Shown one piece after another: positions 8,494 to 26,199 of a stretch of DNA of 32,000 nt. Position numbers and translations under genes: made by a program. Every line of letters starts with the position of its first letter. The first letter of the stretch is position 1. The DNA is from Microcystis aeruginosa NIES-2549 (GTDB taxonomy: Bacteria > Cyanobacteriota > Cyanobacteriia > Cyanobacteriales > Microcystaceae). Where the stretch lies: positions 1,560,001 to 1,592,000 of the forward strand of contig NZ_CP011304.1 of assembly GCF_000981785.2 (NCBI RefSeq). Reading direction: 5' to 3'. The notes beneath the pieces are model-generated. The model searched no databases, was not told the DNA's origin, and saw only the letters and a program-made list of their open reading frames with translations.

Positions 8494-9294
8494 ATGACTG
8501 CCATTGCCCTCACCATCGCCGGTTCCGATAGTGGCGGCGGCGCGGGAATTCAAGCTGATTTGAAAACCTTCGCCTTCCACCGAGTTCACGGCACCAGCGC
8601 CCTTACCTGCGTTACCGCCCAAAATACCCTGGGGGTCGATCGGGTCGAGTCCCTAAGTCCAGAAATGGTAACGGCCCAAATCGATGCGGTGGTCAGGGAT
8701 TTCGGTGTGTCAGCGGTCAAGACGGGAATGCTGTTTAGTAGCGAGATTATCGAAGCGGTGGCCGAGGCGATCGAGCGCTGGCGTTTAACCAGTTTAGTGG
8801 TGGATCCGGTTATGGTGTCGCGGGTAGGAGCCAAATTAATTGATGATCGGGCTGTAGATAGTCTTTTTGATAGTTTAATTCCCCTGGCTTCGATTATTAC
8901 CCCTAATCGTTACGAAGCGCAGCTTTTAAGTGGCATCGAGATCAATGATTTTGAGACGATGAAAGCGGCCGCCGAAATTATTTTCCAGAAGTCGGCCACA
9001 CCGGTATTAGTGAAAGGAGGAGGTATGAAAGGCCGGCTGCGTGGGGTTGATATCTGCTTTGATGGGGAGGAATGGGAAACTTTTCAGACCAGAAGCGTCG
9101 AAACCAATAACACTCACGGGACTGGTTGTACTCTATCGGCCGCGATCGCCGCTAACCTCGCTTTGGGTGATGACCTGAAAATAGCGGTGAGAAAAGCCAA
9201 GGATTACGTTACTAACGCCCTCGATCATTCCCTCGCTATCGGTTACGGAACAGGTCCAGTGGGTCATTTTTACGCATTAAAAGCCCTAAATTAG
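8494..9294 (+). CDS. thiD: bifunctional hydroxymethylpyrimidine kinase / phosphomethylpyrimidine kinase
   Basis: The N-terminal motif is IAGSDSGGGAGIQADLKT, and the anion-hole region is VKGGG...THGTGCTLSAAIAA. The gene starts 6 nt after the ftsZ stop. Confidence 0.9.
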   Translation: MTAIALTIAGSDSGGGAGIQADLKTFAFHRVHGTSALTCVTAQNTLGVDRVESLSPEMVTAQIDAVVRDFGVSAVKTGMLFSSEIIEAVAEAIERWRLTSLVVDPVMVSRVGAKLIDDRAVDSLFDSLIPLASIITPNRYEAQLLSGIEINDFETMKAAAEIIFQKSATPVLVKGGGMKGRLRGVDICFDGEEWETFQTRSVETNNTHGTGCTLSAAIAANLALGDDLKIAVRKAKDYVTNALDHSLAIGYGTGPVGHFYALKALN

Positions 9295-9303
9295 TCAAAA
9301 TTC

Positions 9304-9789
9304 ATGGCCAATACGCCCCGTATTTCCCCCCAAGTACCCCAGAGTTGCACCGGTCGCCCCTCGGTTCCCCTCTCGGTCTATCGAGAATTAGTCAAAGAAT
9401 TGCAGGCCACCCAGGCACGGGTGGAATTTCTAGAAGCACAAAACCAGCAACTTGTCAAGAGTAATCGGCAATTACGTCAGGAAATCGAGACAGTAGTTGC
9501 TCAGGGAAGACGATTAGAAAAAGTGGTAAAGAGTTTCGAGAGGAATCCCGTCGAGGAACCCTCCTTCGTCATCCCAGTTCCTCCCCGTCTGGTTACACCT
9601 CCCTCTCCTTCGCTGCGGGTTAAGGAAGAAATCCCGGTCACTCGTCCCATCACCGTTACTGCTTCAAAACAGCCATTTCCTAAAAATACTTGGTTATTGG
9701 TCGGGTTAATTATTGTCGTGGTTCTTACCTCCGGTTTCGGGGCTTTTTGGCTTATTTCTGCCTCTAGAAACGCGGGTTCGACCGACTGA
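9304..9789 (+). CDS. hypothetical coiled-coil protein with a C-terminal transmembrane anchor
   Basis: A heptad-like stretch (ELQATQARVEFLEAQNQQLVKSNRQLRQEIE) is followed by a Pro-rich linker and a C-terminal TM helix (WLLVGLIIVVVLTSGFGAFWLI). No family was recognised. Confidence 0.5.
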   Translation: MANTPRISPQVPQSCTGRPSVPLSVYRELVKELQATQARVEFLEAQNQQLVKSNRQLRQEIETVVAQGRRLEKVVKSFERNPVEEPSFVIPVPPRLVTPPSPSLRVKEEIPVTRPITVTASKQPFPKNTWLLVGLIIVVVLTSGFGAFWLISASRNAGSTD

Positions 9790-10115
9790 TTGACTACCAC
9801 CTCGGCATTTTAAGCTTAATTTCTTGCCCTTAGTCGGTTTGCCGCAGGGAAAAACCATTGACGCGGGGCTGTCTATACTCGCACAGTGCAAATCCCACCA
9901 GGTACTTTACCCGATTGAACTATTGAGACTTAGCCAAGAGAAATAGCTTGGCCTTTTTCTCCAGATGACCGACAAATTCGCCAATGTCTTACACTTCATC
10001 CGATCAAGTCTTTCCCATCGTCAGCGATAGACGGGGAGAATGCGATCGAGCCTCGCACTAAGACAAAAACCAATGAAGATAAAAAGCGTTAGAAAATTAG
10101 CTTACCCTGGAAAAA

Positions 10116-14330: not shown

Positions 14331-14443
14331 TCTGTAAGACTTTCGGCTATAGCTAGTACATTCATAGGGGGAAAGTTTAGTTATGTTCTACTTGGAACAC
14401 AATCAAATTAAATCAACCCTTGCAATTTCATATTGAAGCGACA

Positions 14444-16168
14444 ATGAAAGCAATAACCTCAATTCTTGACACCAGAGCCGAGCAAACCCCCAATCAGTTA
14501 GCCTACATCTTTCTTAAGGATGGTCAAAATCAAGAATCATCCATTGACTACAAAACCTTACAGCAAGAATCAAAGGCGATCGCTGATAGCTTACTTTCTC
14601 TTTGCCGCCAAGGTGATCGCGCTTTATTACTTTATCCCCAAGGTTTAGAATTTATTACAGCTTTTTTGGGGTGTCTATATGCTGGGATTGTTGCGGTTCC
14701 CGCTTACCCACCAAAGCGTAATCAAAAAATGTCTCGATTACTAGCAATTATTGAAGATTCTCGCCCTCAAATTATTCTGACAACCAGTTCACTTGTAGAG
14801 AAAATTAAGTCAACACTTGAATCTTTTTTAGACTTATCAGTAACCAGACTTTTAGTCACAGACAATGTGAATAATAACCAAGACTTTAAATTGCATCTTC
14901 CCAGGATTAGCGGTGATACCCTAGCATTTCTTCAATACACATCAGGTTCAACTGGTGCGCCGAAAGGAGTCATGATTTCCCATGACAACGTTGCCCATAA
15001 TTCTGCTTATATTCAAAAAGCATTTCAACTGACAGGAAAAAGTGTTTCTATGACCTGGTTGCCCAGTTTCCATGACATGGGTTTAATTGATGGTATTATT
15101 CAACCGCTTTATACAGGTTTTTTAGGTGTTGTTATGTCGCCTGAATCTTTTTTAAAAAATCCAATGCTTTGGTTAGAAGCAATTACTAAATATCAAGCTA
15201 CTCATAGCGGCGGTCCAAATTTAGGCTATGAATTATGTGTGCAGAGAATTACGTCTGAACAGCAAGAAATGCTTGATCTCAGTAGTTGGATCACTGCCTA
15301 CAATGGAGCCGAGCCAATACGACGAAAAACGATGGAAAACTTTATTAACAAGTTTCAATCTTCTGGGTTTCAATCTCGATATTTTTATCCCTGTTACGGC
15401 ATGGCAGAAGCCACACTAATGATTTCTGGAGGTAATATCGAAGATGAGCCAGTTTACTTAAATGTTCAATCAGAATCCTTAGAGAATAATCAGGTAGTAG
15501 AAGCGGAGAAAGACAGTAAAAATTATCAGGAACTTGTCGGTTGCGGCCATGTCTGGGAAAATATGGCAGTAAAAATTGTCGATCCTGAAAGTTGTTTAGA
15601 ATGTGATGAAAATCAAGTGGGAGAAATTTGGGTTTCGGGTTCTAGTGTTGCCCAAGGATATTGGCAACAAGAAGAAAAAACGATCGCAACTTTTCAGGCT
15701 AAATTAGCTGATGGGGATCAAGGAAATTTTTTCCGAACAGGCGATTTAGGTTTTAGGCGAGAAGGAGAACTATTTATCACGGGAAGAATCAAAGATGTCA
15801 TCATTATTTGGGGACGAAATCATTACCCCCAAGACGTTGAATATTCTGTACAACAAAGTCATCAGGCTCTGCGTTTAGATTCTGGGGCAGCTTTTACAAT
15901 AGAAGTAGATAATCAAGACAAATTAGTGATTGTTCAGGAAGTAGAGCGTACCTATTTAAGCAAGTTAAATGTCAATGAAGTTTTCTCGGCTATTCGTGAA
16001 GCCGTTGCTCTCCATCATGCCTTACAGGTTTATGCGATCGCATTAATTAAACCCGCAAGTATTCTCAAAACCTCTAGCGGTAAAATTCAACGCCAGGCTT
16101 GTCGTCATGCTTTTCTCACAAACAGGCTGGCGATTGTTGCACAATGGCAACAAAATAAGTTATCATGA
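14444..16168 (+). CDS. fatty acyl-AMP ligase (FAAL)
   Basis: The adenylation core is YTSGSTGAPKGVMISH. The length and layout are FAAL-like (WLPSFHDMGL, GDLGF..GELFITGRIKD, SSGKIQRQACR). It is followed by a free ACP gene. The ATG is at 14444; the track start at 14420 is a TTG. Confidence 0.85.
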   Translation: MKAITSILDTRAEQTPNQLAYIFLKDGQNQESSIDYKTLQQESKAIADSLLSLCRQGDRALLLYPQGLEFITAFLGCLYAGIVAVPAYPPKRNQKMSRLLAIIEDSRPQIILTTSSLVEKIKSTLESFLDLSVTRLLVTDNVNNNQDFKLHLPRISGDTLAFLQYTSGSTGAPKGVMISHDNVAHNSAYIQKAFQLTGKSVSMTWLPSFHDMGLIDGIIQPLYTGFLGVVMSPESFLKNPMLWLEAITKYQATHSGGPNLGYELCVQRITSEQQEMLDLSSWITAYNGAEPIRRKTMENFINKFQSSGFQSRYFYPCYGMAEATLMISGGNIEDEPVYLNVQSESLENNQVVEAEKDSKNYQELVGCGHVWENMAVKIVDPESCLECDENQVGEIWVSGSSVAQGYWQQEEKTIATFQAKLADGDQGNFFRTGDLGFRREGELFITGRIKDVIIIWGRNHYPQDVEYSVQQSHQALRLDSGAAFTIEVDNQDKLVIVQEVERTYLSKLNVNEVFSAIREAVALHHALQVYAIALIKPASILKTSSGKIQRQACRHAFLTNRLAIVAQWQQNKLS

Positions 16169-16215: not shown

Positions 16216-16461
16216 ATGAGTCGAGAAAAAATTGAACAGTGGCTAACAGATAGGCTGACAAGTCTTCTAGGTGTAGATAGGGAAGACATTGATTTAGAAA
16301 AATCTATTTTCACCTATGGACTAGATTCTTCCGTTGCCTTGAGTCTTACTGGCGAGTTGGAAGTCATGCTTGGTTTAGAGCTAGACCCAATTTTATTTTG
16401 GGAATATCCCAAAATTAGTGAATTATCTGAATATTTAGTAGCTGAACTAGCTCAAAAATAG
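16216..16461 (+). CDS. acyl carrier protein (stand-alone)
   Basis: The protein is 81 aa and has the phosphopantetheine attachment motif YGLDSSVAL. Confidence 0.85.
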   Translation: MSREKIEQWLTDRLTSLLGVDREDIDLEKSIFTYGLDSSVALSLTGELEVMLGLELDPILFWEYPKISELSEYLVAELAQK

Positions 16462-16537
16462 GGGTGACTTTAATCATGAATGGGAACAAAGTTTTATTTA
16501 TCCTTTTGATGCAGAATTTCAGGCTAATCCCTATCCT

Positions 16538-18047: not shown

Positions 18048-19256
18048 TTAGGAAATTACTTCAACCGTCCACTCATTGCCAATACCTGTACTCCAAGTGG
18101 TAACACCTTGCTCAGAATCAGGACGATGTAAATAATCGCCTTTCCATGACTTCAATTTGATCTTGTCACCAGCGATCTTCTCCACCGTCCACTCATTGCC
18201 AATACCTGTACTCCAAGTGGTAACACCTTGCTCAGAATCAGGACGATGTAAATAATCTCCCTTCCAAGACTTGAGTTTCAATTTCTTTCCTGTGGATAGA
18301 ATATCCTGCTTGTAAGTTCCGCTAATACTATCAATTCGCAGACCAGTGGGCCCACCGATACTATGCAGTTTAAACTCCAGGGTGTTAGTTCCGACGACAA
18401 ATCCCGTCGAAATTGAAAAACGACTAATCTTTGTCCACCAAGAGCTTAAAGCAACAGGTTTACCCACCGATACCCCGTTAAGCACAATATCAGTAATGTT
18501 GTCATCCACGGAAAGTTCACCGACAATGGAAGCTTCAGAAAAATTGGGTAAAGTAAAGGTGGTTGTATAGCTATAGTTGCCAACCGGACCGTTAGCCGAA
18601 GGTTTTTTAGGGCCAATCCATCGGGCGGTATTGGTATTCGTAACCCAGTTAATTGGTGCTAAATCCTTGTTGGGAGTGGTAACACCTGGAGTTACTGTCC
18701 CCGCCGGATAGGTTGTTAACTTATAGTGGGGGTCGGGAATGCTATCCCCTAAAACCTGACGGGCATCGTCAACCCCCGTATTGTAGAGGTTAGCGATCAC
18801 TCCTGGCGCAGTGGGGACAATTTCCGTTGCTTTAGCAGTAGCAGAATAAGCAATCGTCAACTTGCCAGTGTTATCTGCGTACCATTTAGGATCATCGTTA
18901 TTGACGAAAGAAACTGTGTCTCCCGGTTGTAATTCAAAGCTTTGTTGTTTGCCGCTCACCGTAGATTTTGTGTTGCCCTTGGCATCTTTAATTTCGCCAA
19001 CTAAGGCCCCTGGATTCAAATTGGGATACTTAAGCCCAAATTTTTCATCGTTTTTGTCTCGGACATGACCATTGCCATCCACTGGGGTTTTGTATTTGGC
19101 TAGGCTAGGATCAGATGTTTCAAAGTTAATTAAAGTCCATTGACCTGTTGCCGTCAGGGAGATTGTCACCGTGCTACCGGAATTATTAGCCAGAGCTGGG
19201 GGATTATTAAGCTGGGTAGCCAGTTCTAATTGAGCCAGTCTGAGATGTTGAGACAA
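18048..19256 (-). CDS. multidomain lectin-like protein (PA-IL/LecA-like N-domain, carbohydrate-binding-like middle domain, two 40-aa Trp/Gly-rich C-terminal repeats)
   Basis: In the N-domain, GALVGEI...VSFVNNDDPKWYADNTGKLTI resembles the LecA pattern ...LIYNDVPGTYGNNSGSFSV. The middle region (NLYNTGVDD..DPHYKL...WIGP...GNYSYTTTFTLP...VDDNITDIVLNGV...GTNTLEFKLHS.GGPTGL) resembles domains seen in PEP-CTERM-type secreted proteins. The C-terminus carries KSWKGDYLHRPDSEQGVTTWSTGIGNEWTVE twice. The start is a TTG and no signal peptide is evident. Confidence 0.7.
   Translation of the reverse strand: MSQHLRLAQLELATQLNNPPALANNSGSTVTISLTATGQWTLINFETSDPSLAKYKTPVDGNGHVRDKNDEKFGLKYPNLNPGALVGEIKDAKGNTKSTVSGKQQSFELQPGDTVSFVNNDDPKWYADNTGKLTIAYSATAKATEIVPTAPGVIANLYNTGVDDARQVLGDSIPDPHYKLTTYPAGTVTPGVTTPNKDLAPINWVTNTNTARWIGPKKPSANGPVGNYSYTTTFTLPNFSEASIVGELSVDDNITDIVLNGVSVGKPVALSSWWTKISRFSISTGFVVGTNTLEFKLHSIGGPTGLRIDSISGTYKQDILSTGKKLKLKSWKGDYLHRPDSEQGVTTWSTGIGNEWTVEKIAGDKIKLKSWKGDYLHRPDSEQGVTTWSTGIGNEWTVEVIS
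18055..18294 (-). repeat. Tandem 120-nt duplication inside the lectin-like gene
   Basis: Positions 18064-18137 and 18184-18257 are identical over 74 nt. The flanks are similar but diverged. Confidence 0.9.
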
Positions 19257-19401: not shown

Positions 19402-22400
19402 ATGATTAAACAGCCCATAGCAATTGTTGGTATGGGATGTCGTTTTCCCGGAGCCAATAATCCTAGTGAATTTTGGGAGATACTCCAAAATGGCGTACAT
19501 ACGATAACTAAAGACCCTATAGATCGCCCTACGCAGATGACAGGTTGGGCGGGATTTCTCGAGGGCATAGATAAATTTGATGCGGCGTTTTTTGGCATTT
19601 CTTCGGAAGAAGCGATCAAGATGGATCCTCAACACAGACTTTTGTTAGAAACCTCTTGGGAAGCCTTAGAAGACGCTGGGCTAGTTCCCGCTAATTTAGC
19701 AGGGACCGATACTGGCGTTTTTATTGGGCTTTCTGGTAGTGAATATCTGAATTTATTAATTGAAGATTCAACCTTTAATACCGCCATTGGAACTCTCGAC
19801 TGTATGTTAGCCAATAGGATTTCTTCCTATTTTGATTTTCACGGTTTAAGTCTAACAATAAATACCGCTTGTTCTTCTGTATTAGTGGCAATAGATCGTG
19901 CCTGTCAAAGCTTATGGAATGAAGACATTTGTTTGGCTTTAGTAGGTGGTACACATCTAACTTTTTCTCCCGTGATTGCCTCTAGATATGTCAATGCGGG
20001 TTTGATTTCTGCCGATGGTTTGTGTAAAACTTTTGATGCTAAAGCGGATGGTTATGTTCGGGGCGAGTGCATCGGAGTCGTTGTCTTAAAACTTCTATCC
20101 CAAGCTCAAGCGGATGGCGATCGCATTTATGCTGTGATTCGGGGGAGTGGCGTTAATCACAATGGTAGTGGTAATGGCTTGACCGCACCCAATATGCAAG
20201 CCCAGATTGCTCTCTTGCAAAAAGTTTATCAACGGGCAGAAATTAATCCCAATTCCATTAATTATATTGAAGCTAACGGTACGGCAACGCCCATTGGAGA
20301 TGCCTTAGAAATGAAGGCATTAGGAACAGTAGTTGGCAAAGATCGAACTGCTGATAATCCCTGTCGGGTGGGCAGTGTAAAAACCAATATTGGTCATACA
20401 GAAGGTGCTTCTGGTATTGCGGGGTTGATTAAAGTTGCTCTTTCCCTCTATCACCGTCAAATACCCCCCACTTTACATTGTCAAGAGCCTAATCCTGCCA
20501 TTCCTTTTGCCAAACTAGGACTAAAAGTACAACAAACTTTGGAAACTTTACCCGAAGAAACAGGGCCAATTCGAGCAGGGGTTAGTTCTTTTAGTCTGGG
20601 GGGAACGAATGCTCATCTGATATTGGAATCAGTCCCGTCTCAAGCAAAAGCTGAACCTAATCTTTCTCCTTTACAAGTTTTTACTCTAACCGCCAAGACT
20701 TCTACTGCTTTACAAGCTTTGGTGCAACGTTATCAATCTTTCCTAGAAGATAACCCTGAAGTCGCTTTGTCCGATATTTGTTTTATGGCTAATACTAGGC
20801 GATCTCAATTCTCCCACCGTCTAGCTATGATCACTGAATCAAAAGAACAATTGCAAGAGCAACTAAATATGATTGTTCGCCAAGAAGCATTATCAAGTGT
20901 ATTCAGTGGACAAGTTATAAGGCAAAAATCCGCACCAATTTGTTTTATTTTTTCTGGAAAAAGCCAGAAACTTAAACTAATTATTAAATCCCTTGCTCAA
21001 AGTCATCCAGCCATCTATTCATTGCTAGAAGAATTGCAACCACTTATTTCTTCTTATTCGACAAGATCATTTTTTCAATTAATAGAAGAAGAAAATTTAG
21101 AAAACCCTTTTCTTAGCCAAGTAGTCAACTTTATCTGTGAATATGCGATGACTCAATTATGGCAATACTGGGGAATAAAACCAGCAATCTGTATAGGTTA
21201 TGGTCTGGGAAATTATGCTGCTTTAGTATTGGCGGGAATTTTAACTGTAGAAGAGGCAATTTCTTTAATCATAGAAGATAAAAACTCTGAATCACCTCCC
21301 AAGTTTCAAGCCGCAAAAATTCCCGTAATTTTACCGATCAGTGGTAAGACAATTAAAATTCATGAAACTATTGACTATAAGCAGTGGCAAAAAGAATTTA
21401 ATGTCAATAACATGAACGCAGAAAATTTACCTAGCCTATTATCAGACTCTAATGTAATTTTGCTAGATCTATGTTCTCTGGAGATCAAAAGTCATGATTA
21501 TCTCAAACAGCTTGATGATTATAACATAAAAAGTTCTGAACAAATAAAAAGTTTTGATTATTTATATTATTTATTTTCCACTTTAATCAAATTCTGGTTA
21601 ATGGGGGTGAAAATTGATTGGTCTAAAGTTTCAAACTATCAACAATGTTATCCTATTTCAGTCCCTACCTATCCCTTTGAGGGTCAATCATACTGGATTG
21701 ATGTATCACCTAAAATACCGAATCAACAAAGCATCCATAATCAAGAGAACTATTTGAAGGGACAACAAAGCAATAATCAAGAGAACTATTTGAATGTAGA
21801 ATTTATCGCTCCTCGTGATAATTTAGAAATGCAATTGACCGAGATTTGGCGAGAAGTTTTAGGAATCCAGACTATCGGAGTCAAAGACAATTTCTTCAAT
21901 TTAGGGGGACAATCTCTGGTGGCGGTCAAGCTATTTGCTCAAATCGAAAAAGTCTTCAAGGTCAATCTACCATTAGTCACCCTTTTCCAAGCTCCAACGG
22001 TTGAGCAAATAGCTAGGATTCTCCGGGAGAAAGCGGTTGAAACTGACCCCCAGACTCACAGCCTTAGACTTGAAAGCCAACTAAATCCTCAGTCTTCTCT
22101 AGTAGCTATGCAGTCGAGTGGCGCGAAAAGACCATTTTTTCTCGTCCCCGGTGGCGGCGGCGGCGAAAATGAATTAATCATCTATGCCAAATTAGTCTAT
22201 CTTTTTGGTCAAGAACGGCCTGTTTATGGATTCCAAGCAAGGGGTTGGGACGGAATCGAAAATCCTCACAATACTGTAGAGGCTATGGCAACCGACTACA
22301 TCAAAGAAATCCGTACCGTCCAACCCGAAGGACCTTATCTTCTCGGAGGTGAATGTATAGGCGGACTTGTCGCGTTGGAAATGGCACAACAGCTAGTCGC

Positions 22401-22875
22401 ACAAGGACAGAAAGTGGGATTATTAGTTTTTCTCGATACACCTGTTCTAACTCTGCCGAGAAAACTCCGCTATCAGGTGGAGAAATTTTTCCAAATTCCA
22501 AGAATTCGCTATCATCTCAGAGAACTCCAATTCTCAGCCAAAGGAGAGAGTCTCACCTATATTTTTAACCAAGCATCAAAGGTGAAGGAAAAGCTGGCAG
22601 AAGACAGCTTCAGTCGCCACCGAAAAAAAGTTGCCAAAAACTACATAAAAATGATTATGCACTACAGACCACAAACCTATTCTGGTGGAATTACCTGGTT
22701 AGTCACTGAAAGTTTTTATCCCAAGGCTCAAAATCAGGGGTGGAACCATCTAGCCAGAGGAGGACTAGAAATTCACCGGATTCCAGGAACTCACGACTCT
22801 TATCTCGGTGACAATGTCGAGACTACGGCTGAAAGGCTTAAAGCTTGCCTTGACGAAGCGCAGGCAGATGATTGA
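19402..22875 (+). CDS. type I PKS-like synthase: KS (Cys-Asn-His) - degenerate AT-sized region - PCP-type carrier - thioesterase (Cys nucleophile)
   Basis: KS motifs are GMGCRFPGA, TACSS (Cys codon 19870-19872), EANGTAT (Asn 20275-20277 where His is expected) and NIGHTEGASG. The AT-like region has FIFSGKSQK and GYGLGNYAA in place of GQGSQ and GHSxGE. A post-AT linker VPTYPFEGQSYWI is present. The carrier motif is FFNLGGQSL (Ser 21913-21915). The TE has FFLVPGGGGG, YGFQARG, LGGECIGG (Cys 22354-22356) and GTHDSY. Confidence 0.9.
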   Translation: MIKQPIAIVGMGCRFPGANNPSEFWEILQNGVHTITKDPIDRPTQMTGWAGFLEGIDKFDAAFFGISSEEAIKMDPQHRLLLETSWEALEDAGLVPANLAGTDTGVFIGLSGSEYLNLLIEDSTFNTAIGTLDCMLANRISSYFDFHGLSLTINTACSSVLVAIDRACQSLWNEDICLALVGGTHLTFSPVIASRYVNAGLISADGLCKTFDAKADGYVRGECIGVVVLKLLSQAQADGDRIYAVIRGSGVNHNGSGNGLTAPNMQAQIALLQKVYQRAEINPNSINYIEANGTATPIGDALEMKALGTVVGKDRTADNPCRVGSVKTNIGHTEGASGIAGLIKVALSLYHRQIPPTLHCQEPNPAIPFAKLGLKVQQTLETLPEETGPIRAGVSSFSLGGTNAHLILESVPSQAKAEPNLSPLQVFTLTAKTSTALQALVQRYQSFLEDNPEVALSDICFMANTRRSQFSHRLAMITESKEQLQEQLNMIVRQEALSSVFSGQVIRQKSAPICFIFSGKSQKLKLIIKSLAQSHPAIYSLLEELQPLISSYSTRSFFQLIEEENLENPFLSQVVNFICEYAMTQLWQYWGIKPAICIGYGLGNYAALVLAGILTVEEAISLIIEDKNSESPPKFQAAKIPVILPISGKTIKIHETIDYKQWQKEFNVNNMNAENLPSLLSDSNVILLDLCSLEIKSHDYLKQLDDYNIKSSEQIKSFDYLYYLFSTLIKFWLMGVKIDWSKVSNYQQCYPISVPTYPFEGQSYWIDVSPKIPNQQSIHNQENYLKGQQSNNQENYLNVEFIAPRDNLEMQLTEIWREVLGIQTIGVKDNFFNLGGQSLVAVKLFAQIEKVFKVNLPLVTLFQAPTVEQIARILREKAVETDPQTHSLRLESQLNPQSSLVAMQSSGAKRPFFLVPGGGGGENELIIYAKLVYLFGQERPVYGFQARGWDGIENPHNTVEAMATDYIKEIRTVQPEGPYLLGGECIGGLVALEMAQQLVAQGQKVGLLVFLDTPVLTLPRKLRYQVEKFFQIPRIRYHLRELQFSAKGESLTYIFNQASKVKEKLAEDSFSRHRKKVAKNYIKMIMHYRPQTYSGGITWLVTESFYPKAQNQGWNHLARGGLEIHRIPGTHDSYLGDNVETTAERLKACLDEAQADD

Positions 22876-22951: not shown

Positions 22952-23860
22952 ATGAAGGCTCCAGTGGCTTTTTTTATCTTTAACCGACCTCAACTGACAG
23001 CAAAGGTATTTGAAGGGATTCGTCAGGCCAAACCCAACAAACTGTTTATCATTGCCGACGGTCCGCGCTCCGCTCGACCAGACGACCGCGACAAGTGCGC
23101 TGCCACCCGTGCCGTTGTCAAACAAATCGATTGGGACTGTGAAGTATTCAGGAACTATTCAGAGGTTAATCTAGGCTGCGGACGCAGGGTATCTACAGGT
23201 ATTAGCTGGGTTTTTGAGCAAGTCGAGGAAGCCATCATCCTAGAGGACGACTGCCTCCCCCACCCAACTTTTTTTCCATTTTGCGAACAACTATTGGAGA
23301 AATATAGAAATGAGCCAAAAATAATGAGTATCAGCGGAACTAACTGGTTAGGACAATGGAAATCAGAGCAGCAGAGTTATCATTTTAACTTTTGTGGGGG
23401 CATTTGGGGATGGGCCACTTGGAAAAGAGCTTGGCAAGGCTATGACTATGAGATTAAATTATGGTCAAACCGAAAAATCAGGCAAGAAATTAAAGATTTT
23501 ATCGAGGATGAACAAATATTTAAATGGTACGACCAAGTTTTCTCCCAAGCCTATAGAGGAGAAATTAATACTTGGGACTATCAGTGGATGTTTCAATGCC
23601 TTTTCCACTCAGGATTAGAAGTGGTTCCCTCAGTCAACTTAATTTCTAATATTGGCTTCGGGGAAGAAGCATCCCATACTAAAAACCCCTATGATTTCAG
23701 AAGCAATCTTCCCCAGCACTCTATGTTATTTCCGCTGAAGGAAGCCAAGGAATTAGTAATAGACAGAGAATATGGCAAACAAGTAGTAAAAAAACTTTCT
23801 ATCAATAGCCATCTCCTTGTCAGATTGAAAAATAAAATCAAGAGGTGGTGGGCTGGGTAA
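22952..23860 (+). CDS. GT-A fold glycosyltransferase (GNT-I / HlpA-like family)
   Basis: It has an N-terminal Rossmann-like start (VAFFIFNRPQL), a DxD-type motif ILEDDCLPHPTFF and a length of about 300 aa. It lies 76 nt downstream of the synthase, on the same strand. Confidence 0.65.
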   Translation: MKAPVAFFIFNRPQLTAKVFEGIRQAKPNKLFIIADGPRSARPDDRDKCAATRAVVKQIDWDCEVFRNYSEVNLGCGRRVSTGISWVFEQVEEAIILEDDCLPHPTFFPFCEQLLEKYRNEPKIMSISGTNWLGQWKSEQQSYHFNFCGGIWGWATWKRAWQGYDYEIKLWSNRKIRQEIKDFIEDEQIFKWYDQVFSQAYRGEINTWDYQWMFQCLFHSGLEVVPSVNLISNIGFGEEASHTKNPYDFRSNLPQHSMLFPLKEAKELVIDREYGKQVVKKLSINSHLLVRLKNKIKRWWAG

Positions 23861-24193: not shown

Positions 24194-24223
24194 TTGACAG
24201 GAGGGAAAGACAGTGGTTATAGT
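24194..24223 (+). promoter_or_regulatory. Candidate sigma70-type promoter of the RHH/Ycf46/DUF1257 operon
   Basis: TTGACA (24194-24199), an 18-nt spacer and TATAGT (24218-24223) lie about 35 nt upstream of the ATG at 24258. Confidence 0.45.
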
Positions 24224-24257
24224 AAGGACACATACCCGGGTAAACCAATTTAGTGAT

Positions 24258-24608
24258 ATGCAAGACAAGCAAAAAGTCACACTGTACCTTCCCCCTGGAG
24301 TCCATCGTCAACTAAAAATAAGGGCTGCGATCGATGAAGAATCGATGTCAGGGCTGGTGGAGAAAGCGATCGCTTTCTACCTAAAATACCCCGAAAAGGT
24401 AGAAGAAATCGAAGCCGCCGCCTATGGCAAAACCTATCAGGTTCATGTCTGTCCCGAGTGTGATGCCGCGTTAGTAATGAAAGAAGATCGGCTAAGGTCG
24501 ATCAAACGCCAGCCCGGAATAGTCGGCGACGAGTTCCCGCTCGAAGTTCCCGAACCCGTCGGCGCCCAAGCAACCGCAGAGGGAGAAGCAGCCTTAGTTC
24601 CCTGCTAA
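24258..24608 (+). CDS. conserved cyanobacterial protein with an RHH-like N-terminus and a CxxC element (Synechocystis slr0373-like position)
   Basis: KVTLYLPPGVHRQLKIRAAIDEESMSGLVEKAIAFYL resembles a ribbon-helix-helix fold, and a single CPEC motif follows. It lies directly upstream of the ycf46-like gene. The ATG is at 24258. Confidence 0.65.
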   Translation: MQDKQKVTLYLPPGVHRQLKIRAAIDEESMSGLVEKAIAFYLKYPEKVEEIEAAAYGKTYQVHVCPECDAALVMKEDRLRSIKRQPGIVGDEFPLEVPEPVGAQATAEGEAALVPC

Positions 24609-24687: not shown

Positions 24688-26199
24688 ATGAAAGAAGAGC
24701 TAGAAATTCTCGTCAAGGCTCAGTATCCCCTGATTTACCTCGTCACCTCCGAGGAGGAAAGGGCGGAAGAAGCCATCAGCAAAATAGCCCAACTAAATAC
24801 ACAACATCGACGGGTGTTTGTCTGGACTGTCACCCACGGCATGATCGAACAGGGTCAACCGCGCCAAACCAGTCAACATAATACCGTGTCTCCAGAAGCG
24901 GCGATCGAATGGGTAGTGCGTCAACGGGAAGCGGGCATCTACATCTTCAAAGACCTGCATCCGTTCATCACTTCCGCTCCGGTCACTCGCTGGCTAAGAG
25001 ATGCGATCGCCAGCTTTAAAGGAACCGAAAAAATCATTATTTTAATGTCTCCCCTGCAAGAAGTCCCCATAGAACTAGAGAAAGACGTAGTAGTTCTAGA
25101 TTTTCCCCTGCCGGACATGGGAGAGTTAGATACGGTTCTCTCGCAACACCTAACCAGAAATCAAAATCGTCGTACCACCACAGAGGTCCGGGAAAAACTC
25201 CTGAAAGCGGCCTTGGGTTTAACCAAAGATGAAGCCGAAAAAGTTTACCGGAAAGCCTATGTAAAAGCGAGCAAATTGACGGAAGACGAGGTAGAAATCG
25301 TCCTTTCCGAGAAAAAACAACTGATTCGCCGCAACGGAATTTTAGAATACATTGAAGAGGACGAGACCATCAATGCCGTCGGCGGTCTGGAAGAATTAAA
25401 AAAATGGTTAAAACAGCGCTCAAACGCCTTTACAGAAAGAGCCAGAGGTTACGGACTCCCCCAACCGAAAGGGATGCTAATTTTAGGAGTACCCGGCTGT
25501 GGTAAGTCCTTAATCGCTAAAACCACCTCGCGTCTCTGGAGTTTACCGCTCCTGCGCTTAGATATGGGACGGGTTTACGATGGTTCCATGGTGGGACGGT
25601 CCGAGGCTAACCTGCGTAATGCCTTAAAAACTGCCGAATCCATCTCTCCGGCCATTCTTTTCATCGATGAATTAGATAAAGCTTTTGCCGGTGGCACGGG
25701 ATCCGCCGATTCCGATGGGGGAACCTCTAGCCGCATCTTCGGCTCCTTCCTGACTTGGATGCAGGAAAAAACCTCGCCCGTCTTCGTCATGGCCACAGCT
25801 AACCGGATTGAACGGCTACCCGGGGAATTTCTCCGTAAGGGGCGCTTCGATGAAATCTTCTTTGTCGATTTGCCCAATTCCGAAGAAAGACAAGATATCT
25901 TTAATATTCACCTGACTAAACGACGCTCCGACATTTCTCGCTTCGATTTGGAGCAGTTAGCCAAGGTATCCGATGGGTTTTCCGGTGCGGAAATAGAACA
26001 GGCGCTGATTGCCGCCATGTATGAGGCCTTCGCCCAGGATCGCGAATTCACGCAATTAGACATTATTGCGGCGATTAAGGCGACTCTGCCCCTATCTCGC
26101 ACCATGACCGAACAGGTAACGGCCCTGCGTGATTGGGCCAGACAACGCGCCCGACCTGCTTCGGCCTCCGTCGCTGAGTACCAGCGATTGGAGTTCTAA
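24688..26199 (+). CDS. ycf46: AAA+ ATPase Ycf46 family
   Basis: The protein is 503 aa, with the N-terminal domain YPLIYLVTSEEERAE, Walker A GVPGCGKSL, Walker B ILFIDELDK and a second region of homology ATANR...RKGRFDEIFFVDLP. This architecture is typical of cyanobacterial and plastid Ycf46. Confidence 0.85.
   Translation: MKEELEILVKAQYPLIYLVTSEEERAEEAISKIAQLNTQHRRVFVWTVTHGMIEQGQPRQTSQHNTVSPEAAIEWVVRQREAGIYIFKDLHPFITSAPVTRWLRDAIASFKGTEKIIILMSPLQEVPIELEKDVVVLDFPLPDMGELDTVLSQHLTRNQNRRTTTEVREKLLKAALGLTKDEAEKVYRKAYVKASKLTEDEVEIVLSEKKQLIRRNGILEYIEEDETINAVGGLEELKKWLKQRSNAFTERARGYGLPQPKGMLILGVPGCGKSLIAKTTSRLWSLPLLRLDMGRVYDGSMVGRSEANLRNALKTAESISPAILFIDELDKAFAGGTGSADSDGGTSSRIFGSFLTWMQEKTSPVFVMATANRIERLPGEFLRKGRFDEIFFVDLPNSEERQDIFNIHLTKRRSDISRFDLEQLAKVSDGFSGAEIEQALIAAMYEAFAQDREFTQLDIIAAIKATLPLSRTMTEQVTALRDWARQRARPASASVAEYQRLEF

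Follow-up and report, generated by a model that had tools for sequence, protein, structure and literature searches.

In polyketide synthases (PKSs) that carry their acyltransferase (AT) in cis, the ketosynthase (KS), the KS-AT linker, the AT and the post-AT linker form a single structural body, as seen in KS-AT didomain structures such as 2hg4 and 4mz0. In trans-AT PKSs the ancestral AT has lost its function and the flanking linker has been retained; as far as is known, only a linker subdomain of about 100 residues is left there, and the cluster encodes a discrete AT. Among KSs, loss of the His in the HGTGT motif defines the non-elongating type (KS0), this His being treated as required for decarboxylative condensation (PMC4661987). 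Inactive ATs and non-elongating KSs are thus already known; in Microcystis aeruginosa NIES-2549 the two appear to be combined in one minimal, free-standing module, encoded within a stretch of 32,000 nucleotides (contig NZ_CP011304.1, positions 1,560,001 to 1,592,000; hereafter the window, in whose numbering all coordinates are given). The gene in question (19402..22875; plus strand, as for all features below unless stated otherwise) encodes a PKS of 1,157 residues, in which Pfam recognizes the N- and C-terminal ketoacyl-synt domains, KAsynt_C_assoc, a CurL-like linker, a partial Acyl_transf_1, PP-binding and Thioesterase. We read its order as KS-AT0-PCP-TE, in which PCP is a carrier of the nonribosomal peptide synthetase (NRPS) type, TE is a thioesterase, and AT0 is a vestigial AT that is very probably a catalytically dead structural relic.

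The KS (19411..20631, residues 4-410, Pfam) is followed by the KS-AT linker domain (LD; 20674..20883, residues 425-493), which matches Pfam CurL-like_PKS_C (4.6e-24) and an RhiE-like linker, and then by AT0 (20884..21657, residues 495-752), of which only the large subdomain is present. In a phmmer search against all Protein Data Bank (PDB) sequences, residues 423-624 aligned with the linker and N-terminal AT half of CurL (domain E 5.8e-31), ZmaA, and ClbI, with FSGKSQKLK falling under FTGQGSQYV and IGYGLGNY under MGHSVGEY; the post-AT linker was aligned by a separate second hit. The same motif register was obtained with MAFFT for 22 orthologues, the Nostoc relative P0108 and three canonical ATs, and the motifs are also in register with the AT of DEBS. 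Because the phmmer and MAFFT columns agree, the substitutions reported in a preliminary description of the window (FIFSGKSQKLK for GQGSQ, and CIGYGLGNYAA for GHSxG with Gly in place of Ser and Tyr before it) are real and in register, and the alignment of the motifs lies far beyond chance. The first of these relics, FIFSGKSQ (20944..20967, residue 515 on), has Lys520 at the position of the first Gln, and the elbow relic CIGYGLG (21190..21210, residue 597 on) has Tyr600 (21199-21201) at the His position and Gly601 (GGT, 21202-21204) at that of the Ser. The change of His to Tyr alone is tolerated, as shown by ZmaA, a characterized AT with GYSFG; within this motif, the disabling change is that of Ser to Gly. 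Further on, Asp626 (21277..21279) occupies the carboxylate-binding Arg site (the equivalent of FabD Arg117, by spacing from the Ser). Arg stands at this position in 15 of the 16 non-family rows of alignment A2, compared with 3 of 49 in the family (all family counts given here are from 49 aligned cyanobacterial members).

The preliminary description had also assigned the region the length of a normal KS-AT linker plus AT, and here we differ: it is about 90 residues short. Measured in the same alignment columns, 241 residues lie between the Phe of the GQGSQ strand and the Pro of the PTYPF linker, compared with 332-340 in three canonical ATs. In alignment A3 there is one 89-column gap after Pro633 in the window protein and in all orthologues, and the deletion junction, Pro633/Lys634, maps to 21298..21303. 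In canonical ATs the gap is filled by GGAM, about 60 further residues, and SHAFHS, i.e., by the small ferredoxin-like subdomain and the catalytic His of HAFH, and 88-89 residues are gone from the window protein. The stretch that follows the gap (AKIPVILPISGKT through QWQKEF) can still be recognized as the C-terminal part of the large subdomain, and AKIPVILPISGKT aligns with P-x-IP-x-VSNVTG. The enrichment in Asn, Lys and Ile that had been noticed in the distal half is genuine (N+K+I+S fraction 0.37 and GC content 0.31, compared with 0.23 and 0.43 in the KS), but the half as a whole is not foreign to ATs, since part of it is still large-subdomain sequence and only residues ~640-725 are at once family-specific, rich in these residues and low in GC. 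The post-AT linker, VPTYPFEGQSYWI (21658..21711), starts at residue 754, and its P755, Y757, F759, Y764 and W765 do not vary across the family alignment.

Profile scoring, which the preliminary description had proposed together with structure prediction, gave a partial match below threshold: Pfam Acyl_transf_1 covers only profile positions 2-114 of 319 (residues 515-624) and scores 28.5 bits against a gathering score of 32.7. Judged against a competent AT of the Acyl_transf_1 (FabD-like) type, the region has no whole-domain score, no Ser, no GQGSQ, no Arg and no small subdomain. All four catalytic elements, namely the GQGSQ Gln, the GHSxG Ser, the carboxylate-binding Arg, and the small subdomain with the HAFH His, are thus gone. 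An alternative Ser-His dyad in register, which would have spoken for retained catalysis, was sought in the alignments and none was found. Because every catalytic element has been lost, AT0 cannot form an acyl-enzyme or load itself with malonyl or methylmalonyl.

An AlphaFold2 model of residues 411-775, computed with a 27-row alignment, had a mean pLDDT of 78 and a pTM of 0.81. The nucleophile elbow is present in the model as a strand (596-599) and a helix (603-610), with a pLDDT of ~93 around Gly601, and the LD was modelled at high confidence and matches the LD of solved KS-AT structures. Low confidence was confined to the N-terminal eight residues, the tail of the post-AT linker and an insert at ~705-715, the sole such part within the relic. 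When the model was compared with the PDB by Foldseek, all 50 hits listed were KS-AT didomains or AT fragments (CurL 4mz0, ZmaA 4qbu, salinomycin AT9, Lsd14, DEBS, and the Pks13 AT), with a TM(query) of 0.61-0.70 in the first 25 hits and an E value of 4e-16 at a TM(query) of 0.70; the alignments span ~450 columns, i.e., the query plus the missing subdomain. Similarity in sequence, similarity in structure and the strand-turn-helix elbow agree on homology by descent and fold: residues ~495-752 are a true descendant of the AT of a cis-AT PKS, keeping the large alpha/beta-hydrolase-like subdomain; the linkers on either side, KS-AT and post-AT, are also retained. The preserved fold and predicted elbow geometry could likewise be expected of a region that is cryptically active through other residues, as a hydrolase or a non-malonyl transferase, but this is extremely unlikely. 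There is no conserved Ser or Cys at or beside the elbow, the His-bearing subdomain is gone, and three orthologues have deleted ~55 further residues of the relic. The conserved relic positions (F515, G519, F577, Y581, A582, L586, Y605, E617, and I623), mostly hydrophobic, Gly, Tyr or Glu, are common to the structural core of normal ATs.

The defect is not peculiar to NIES-2549. A protein search yielded ~57 full-length orthologues with 43-98% identity in Microcystis, Cylindrospermopsis raciborskii, Dolichospermum, Snowella, Umezakia, and Aphanothece, and a genome-contig scan added metagenome-assembled genomes (MAGs) of a Merismopediaceae member, a Pseudanabaena and an unclassified cyanobacterium. 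The patterns used in that scan were not family-specific, and only loci L004-L009 from it are true family; L010-L016 form a different short-AT group, and the remaining matches are ordinary PKSs, so neither was taken into the family. A look-up of the exact sequence of the window protein gave no match. At the AT Ser position (601), the members have Gly (46), Ala (1), Glu (1) or Asp (1) and never Ser; at the position of the first Gln of GQGSQ, they have Lys (25), Glu (8), Gln (7), Asn (5), Thr (2) or Ser (2). In a HMMER scan of 1.84 billion representative proteins, only four 50%-identity clusters matched residues 495-752 end to end, and ordinary PKS ATs matched only query positions ~2-131. Pairwise ratios of nonsynonymous to synonymous substitution (dN/dS) against four orthologues were 0.26-0.79 for AT0 and 0.14-0.21 for the KS; AT0 is under purifying but relaxed selection. 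The AT defect is an ancestral trait of the whole cyanobacterial family, neither recent nor a lesion private to the window gene. Because the same relic is found in the same gene cassette of several bloom-forming cyanobacteria, it is better regarded as a kept scaffold than as a one-off mutation. The proposal that this is a structural relic is thus upheld by homology, by loss of all catalytic elements and by selection.

Relics of a similar kind were seen in unrelated large PKS and NRPS-PKS proteins, in which the AT has neither the Ser nor the small subdomain: P0149 (GDGIG), P0213 (GLTQDE, an NRPS hybrid), and P0257 (GRGPG), one of which shows a KS-AT0-PCP-C arrangement. The phenomenon therefore recurs, and AT relics reduced to the large subdomain may be a recurrent and under-annotated feature; among them, the family of the window PKS is a distinct lineage. 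A Nostoc sister group (P0108; L010-L014, match at ~9001-9927) has the order KS-AT-ACP-TE (ACP, acyl carrier protein) and an AT in which the small subdomain is absent and GHSVG, GLGSQ and the Arg are kept; its KS has neither of the two histidines (EANGTGT and NIGNLE). This group may represent an intermediate or a parallel state of module decay.

We then considered what the remainder of the module could do. In the window KS, the motif reads EANGTAT: Cys157 (19870-19872) is kept and the HGTGT His is replaced by Asn292 (20275-20277), which is the sequence signature of a KS0; Lys327 and the second His, His332 (20395-20397), are present. Position 292 is His in 36 members, Gln in 7, Asn in 6 and nothing else, so that 12 other sequences share the KS0 signature with the window. 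Because the 36 retain His, the family is not uniformly KS0. The Microcystis-like clade (P0002-P0006, with 72-89% identity to the window protein) contains all three variants, each of the two replacements is one nucleotide step away from His, and the H/N/Q polymorphism would fit a relaxed need for decarboxylation. The earlier suggestion of a non-extending module agrees with the His-to-Asn change in the window KS and is weakened by the orthologues, most of which keep this His and all of which keep the Cys, the Lys and the second His.

The carrier (21832..22020, residues 811-873, Pfam PP-binding) has the motif FFNLGGQSL, with Ser838 at 21913-21915, preceded by EFIAPRDNLE...IWREVLG, and its best solved relatives are the NRPS PCPs of AB3403, PvdL, LgrA, and TycC. 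It is followed by the TE (22132..22845, residues 911-1148, Pfam Thioesterase 1.3e-19), whose motif GGECIGG places Cys985 (22354-22356) at the nucleophile position and whose His1131 lies at 22792-22794. For the carrier-TE half as a whole, the best match is the termination module of AB3403 (4zxh), in which the TE also has a Cys (GGWCFGG aligns with GGECIGG); within the family, the TE nucleophile is Ser in 45 members and Cys in 4. Malonyl transferases normally serve carriers of the ACP type, not the PCP type. KS Cys157, Lys327 and His332, carrier Ser838, and TE His1131 are all invariant, which marks the rest of the module as functional. Because the KS Cys, the carrier Ser and the TE triad His are strictly conserved while the AT cannot form an acyl-enzyme, the PKS is a working carrier-and-release device from which the extender-loading function is gone.

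The PKS is the last gene of a cassette. The first is a fatty acyl-AMP ligase (FAAL; 14420..16168), with Pfam AMP-binding and a DIP2-like AMP domain, which is matched by the NCBIfam fatty-acid--AMP ligase and FadD32 models at E values of 1e-130 to 1e-137, under the curated cut-offs. It is followed by a stand-alone ACP, ACP1 (16216..16461; GLDSS motif, Pfam PP-binding 5.6e-15), which shares 23% identity with the PCP. ACP1 also adjoins the FAAL in relatives and is fused to it in Aphanothece (L003) and Pseudanabaena (L007). Next comes a BioI-like cytochrome P450 (16476..17695, Pfam p450). Among solved structures, its closest relative is the acyl-ACP complex of BioI (3ejb; E 2.5e-70, 240 bits), followed by PksS and CalO2; by analogy, its substrate may be a fatty acyl chain on ACP, to be hydroxylated or cleaved. 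The order FAAL, ACP, P450, PKS recurs in Cylindrospermopsis (L001, P450 at 8613-9851), Dolichospermum (L002), Aphanothece (L003 and L008), Pseudanabaena (L007, with two tandem P450s), the MAG of an unclassified cyanobacterium (L009) and another Microcystis (L084). A tblastn search of the window with four canonical linker-plus-AT queries found no other AT homologue, in keeping with the earlier remark that no trans-AT is visible there, and a search of nine related loci with query P0060 (reaching as far as 9-10 kb from the PKS on contigs that are long enough) found none either. Literature searches on KS-AT-ACP-TE, on FAAL and P450 in Microcystis, on inactive ATs and on BioI in cyanobacteria returned no description of the cassette; a preprint on biosynthetic gene clusters of Lake Erie Microcystis concerns other type I PKS clusters.

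Compared with Cylindrospermopsis L001 and Microcystis L084, the cassette is a mosaic. The window FAAL is 81% identical to that of L001 and 95% identical to that of L084; the corresponding values are 89% and 57% for the P450, 88% (dS ~0.29) and 84% for the KS, 57% and 88% for AT0, and ~36% and 96% for the PCP-TE part. The P450 and the KS are thus nearest to those of a Nostocales genome, and the FAAL and PCP-TE to those of another Microcystis. L001 has a transposase gene inside its cassette and a group II intron reverse transcriptase gene beside it. The mosaic identities and these mobile-element genes, found within the cassette or next to it, argue for horizontal transfer and domain-level recombination, and the low identity of PCP-TE relative to that of the KS in the Cylindrospermopsis orthologue argues for a C-terminal swap. 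In the window strain, moreover, the P450 gene has a 1-bp deletion at codon 9 (AAT to AT, ~16498-16500) relative to L001, so that the frame from ATG stops after 52 codons and the main frame runs from GTG 16538; either the gene is a pseudogene or encodes an enzyme shortened at its N terminus, or the deletion is a sequencing error. The frameshift, the low GC content (0.31-0.33) and Asn/Lys/Ile enrichment of AT0, and the patchy, mosaic distribution with mobile elements nearby could all be taken to mean that the cassette is decaying and non-functional in this strain, with the dead AT, the KS His-to-Asn change and the P450 frameshift as steps of pseudogenization. We consider this very unlikely, as the 1,157-codon reading frame of the PKS is intact, the same AT0 state extends over at least six genera (dN/dS below 1), the KS, carrier and TE keep an invariant Cys, Ser and His, respectively, and the AT lesion is not recent but goes back to the ancestor of the family.

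On balance, and by a modest preference, we explain the whole as a structural AT relic within a module whose most likely task is to transfer a P450-oxidized fatty acyl chain and then release it. In this scheme the FAAL would adenylate a fatty acid and load it onto ACP1, and the BioI-like P450 would oxidize the ACP-bound chain by in-chain hydroxylation or cleavage, a step which fits because the closest solved relative of the enzyme is BioI with acyl-ACP. The KS would take the oxidized acyl group on Cys157 and, having no extender unit, pass it to the PCP in the manner of a KS0-type gatekeeper, and the TE would release the chain by hydrolysis or lactonization. AT0 would persist as a scaffold, preserving the arrangement of KS, linker and carrier that the parent module had, since KS, linker, AT and post-AT linker form one body in cis-AT PKSs; the linker domain and the carrier may both depend on the large subdomain, the former for support and the latter for its position. 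A module without elongation is the most likely view of this step, but it is unproven, and we put our confidence in it at about even. We favour it because AT function is universally lost, no trans-AT is nearby, the carrier is of the PCP type, and orthologous cassettes can do without the first KS His.

Several observations weigh against this explanation. The HGTGT His is kept in 36 of the 49 orthologues, and where it is replaced, this is solely by Asn or Gln, carboxamides that could still donate a hydrogen bond; the strong constraint on the KS also fits a true condensing enzyme. A pure relay makes the KS and the second carrier look redundant, as FAAL, ACP, P450 and a TE would suffice. FabD is expected in every cyanobacterium, and the searches for ATs made here covered the window and nine loci. 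The frameshift at codon 9 of the P450 gene means that the cassette of the window strain may not be fully functional, and the cassette has neither a known product nor a paper devoted to it that we could find.

The principal alternative draws on the same facts. The PCP could be malonylated in trans by housekeeping FabD or by a distant discrete AT, the KS could carry out one decarboxylative Claisen elongation with Asn or Gln standing in for His, and the TE could release a beta-keto acid, a methyl ketone or a lactone. This would account for the retention of the KS and of a second carrier, and it is in line with the invariant KS Cys, Lys and second His, the common first His, the KS dN/dS of 0.14-0.21, and the restriction of the replacements of that His to polar hydrogen-bond donors. 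It sits poorly with an NRPS-PCP-like carrier, with the finding of no other AT in the window or in the sequence of nine related loci, and with orthologous cassettes that tolerate loss of a His held to be necessary for decarboxylation (PMC4661987). We therefore regard one round of elongation as a possible but doubtful outcome.

A FAAL and a carrier beside KS-AT-carrier-TE also mirror FadD32/Pks13, and the NCBIfam Pks13 model matches the PKS with an E value of 1e-167, though far under its cut-off. A head-to-head coupling as in Pks13 or NocG, in which the FAAL would load both ACP1 and the PCP and the KS would join the two chains with neither a malonyl-derived extender nor an AT, is thus conceivable, and in NocH/NocG one cyanobacterial FAAL does load two substrates for a non-decarboxylative KS (PMC9486936). 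NocG, OleA and PpyS are, however, thiolase/KSIII-type enzymes with a Glu base, whereas the window KS is of the type I Cys-His-His class; NocG/NocH was accordingly set aside as a model, as neither fold nor catalytic residues are comparable. We know of no precedent for a non-decarboxylative Claisen reaction by a type I Cys-His-His KS. Pks13 itself requires an active AT and a carboxylated extender, and nothing points to recognition of the PCP by the FAAL; the identity between ACP1 and the PCP is 23%. Such coupling is improbable. More speculatively, and only as an outside prospect beside the transfer-and-release reading preferred above, the cassette could make a new oxidized lipid in bloom-forming cyanobacteria, with a Cys-(His/Asn/Gln)-His type I KS that has no extender-loading domain performing chemistry other than decarboxylative extension and with AT0 as a pure architectural brace; candidate reactions are gate-kept transthioesterification of a P450-cleaved or P450-hydroxylated chain, non-decarboxylative C-C coupling and C-O coupling.

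Other genes lie within or next to the cassette. Between the P450 and PKS genes, orf402 (18048..19256, minus strand) is divergently transcribed and is a frequent, not obligatory, cassette member, present in five lineages: homologues stand next to the PKS in Cylindrospermopsis L001, Dolichospermum L002, Merismopediaceae L005 (a short contig limited to the P450 gene, orf402 and an initial portion of the PKS gene) and Pseudanabaena L007, and are absent from Microcystis L084 and Aphanothece L003. Its product has two near-identical 40-residue beta-trefoil-like repeats, KLKSWKGDYLHRPDSEQGVTTWSTGIGNEWTVE, which correspond to a 98-nucleotide direct repeat (94% identity, 120-nucleotide spacing) that was detected by a direct repeat search and missed by TRF. 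It has a weak match to the DUF569 beta-trefoil and none in PDB, NCBIfam or PHROGs; longer homologues carry an additional beta/gamma-crystallin-like part, and the product looks non-enzymatic by its sequence. Directly downstream of the PKS, orf302 (22952-23860) has no family match in Pfam, NCBIfam or PHROGs and is conserved only in the Microcystis loci L004 and L084 (95-98%). It was rejected as a core partner of the cassette, as it has no similarity to the same-sized PKS-adjacent genes of Cylindrospermopsis or Aphanothece. An slr0373-family blue-light stress response protein (24213-24608; NCBIfam 154.8 bits, above cut-off) and an AAA+ ATPase (24688-26199) follow and appear unrelated to the cassette.

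Orthologues of the PKS are currently annotated as "acyl transferase domain-containing" or "type I polyketide synthase"; product predictions would be misled by these labels. The module has been conserved, and shuffled by horizontal transfer, in Microcystis, Cylindrospermopsis, Dolichospermum, Snowella-type cyanobacteria, Pseudanabaena, and Aphanothece. It offers a natural example of how far an AT can be deleted (the small subdomain and all catalytic residues) with the remainder kept by selection, which bears on the scaffold role of ATs in PKS engineering, and a natural H/N/Q series at the decarboxylation His of a type I KS in otherwise orthologous proteins. It also belongs to an orphan pathway of harmful-bloom cyanobacteria that is compact, includes a BioI-like P450 and should lend itself to reconstitution.

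CurL is the best match of the window PKS, in sequence as in structure. The KS, the LD, the fold of the AT large subdomain and the PTYPF linker are present as in the cis-AT KS-AT didomains of CurL (4mz0) and DEBS module 5 (2hg4); unlike these, the window PKS is without the small subdomain, the Gln, the Ser, the Arg and the His, and an NRPS-type PCP-TE follows instead of an ACP. The AT of ZmaA (4qbu) is the second-best match by sequence and structure and has Tyr at the GHSxG His position (GYSFG), as in the window; ZmaA keeps the Ser, the small subdomain and activity on hydroxymalonyl-ACP (PMC4207774). The relic also differs from the docking remnant of trans-AT PKSs, because the whole large subdomain is kept and the sequence examined around the PKS in ten loci contains no discrete AT. 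In Pks13/FadD32, a FAAL and a carrier likewise feed KS-AT-carrier-TE, the adjacent FAAL is shared, and the Pks13 AT fragment is a structural match; the AT of Pks13, however, is active and loads a carboxyacyl extender, its KS has Cys-His-His, and the window PKS scores 560 bits against a cut-off of 2100, over the KS half only, which does not make it a Pks13-type condensase. BioI (CYP107H1) is the closest solved relative of the window P450, which is encoded beside FAAL and ACP; the similarity is at family level only (240 bits), with PksS and CalO2 nearly equal. Finally, as in the KS0-carrier-release termini of trans-AT and algal PKSs, the window KS keeps its Cys, has its His replaced and, like them, directly precedes a carrier and release domain. 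It departs from those modules in its cis-AT (CurL-like) descent, in the AT relic it has kept and in the His retained by most orthologues, and the protein stands alone, with FAAL and ACP to prime it, instead of forming part of an assembly line.

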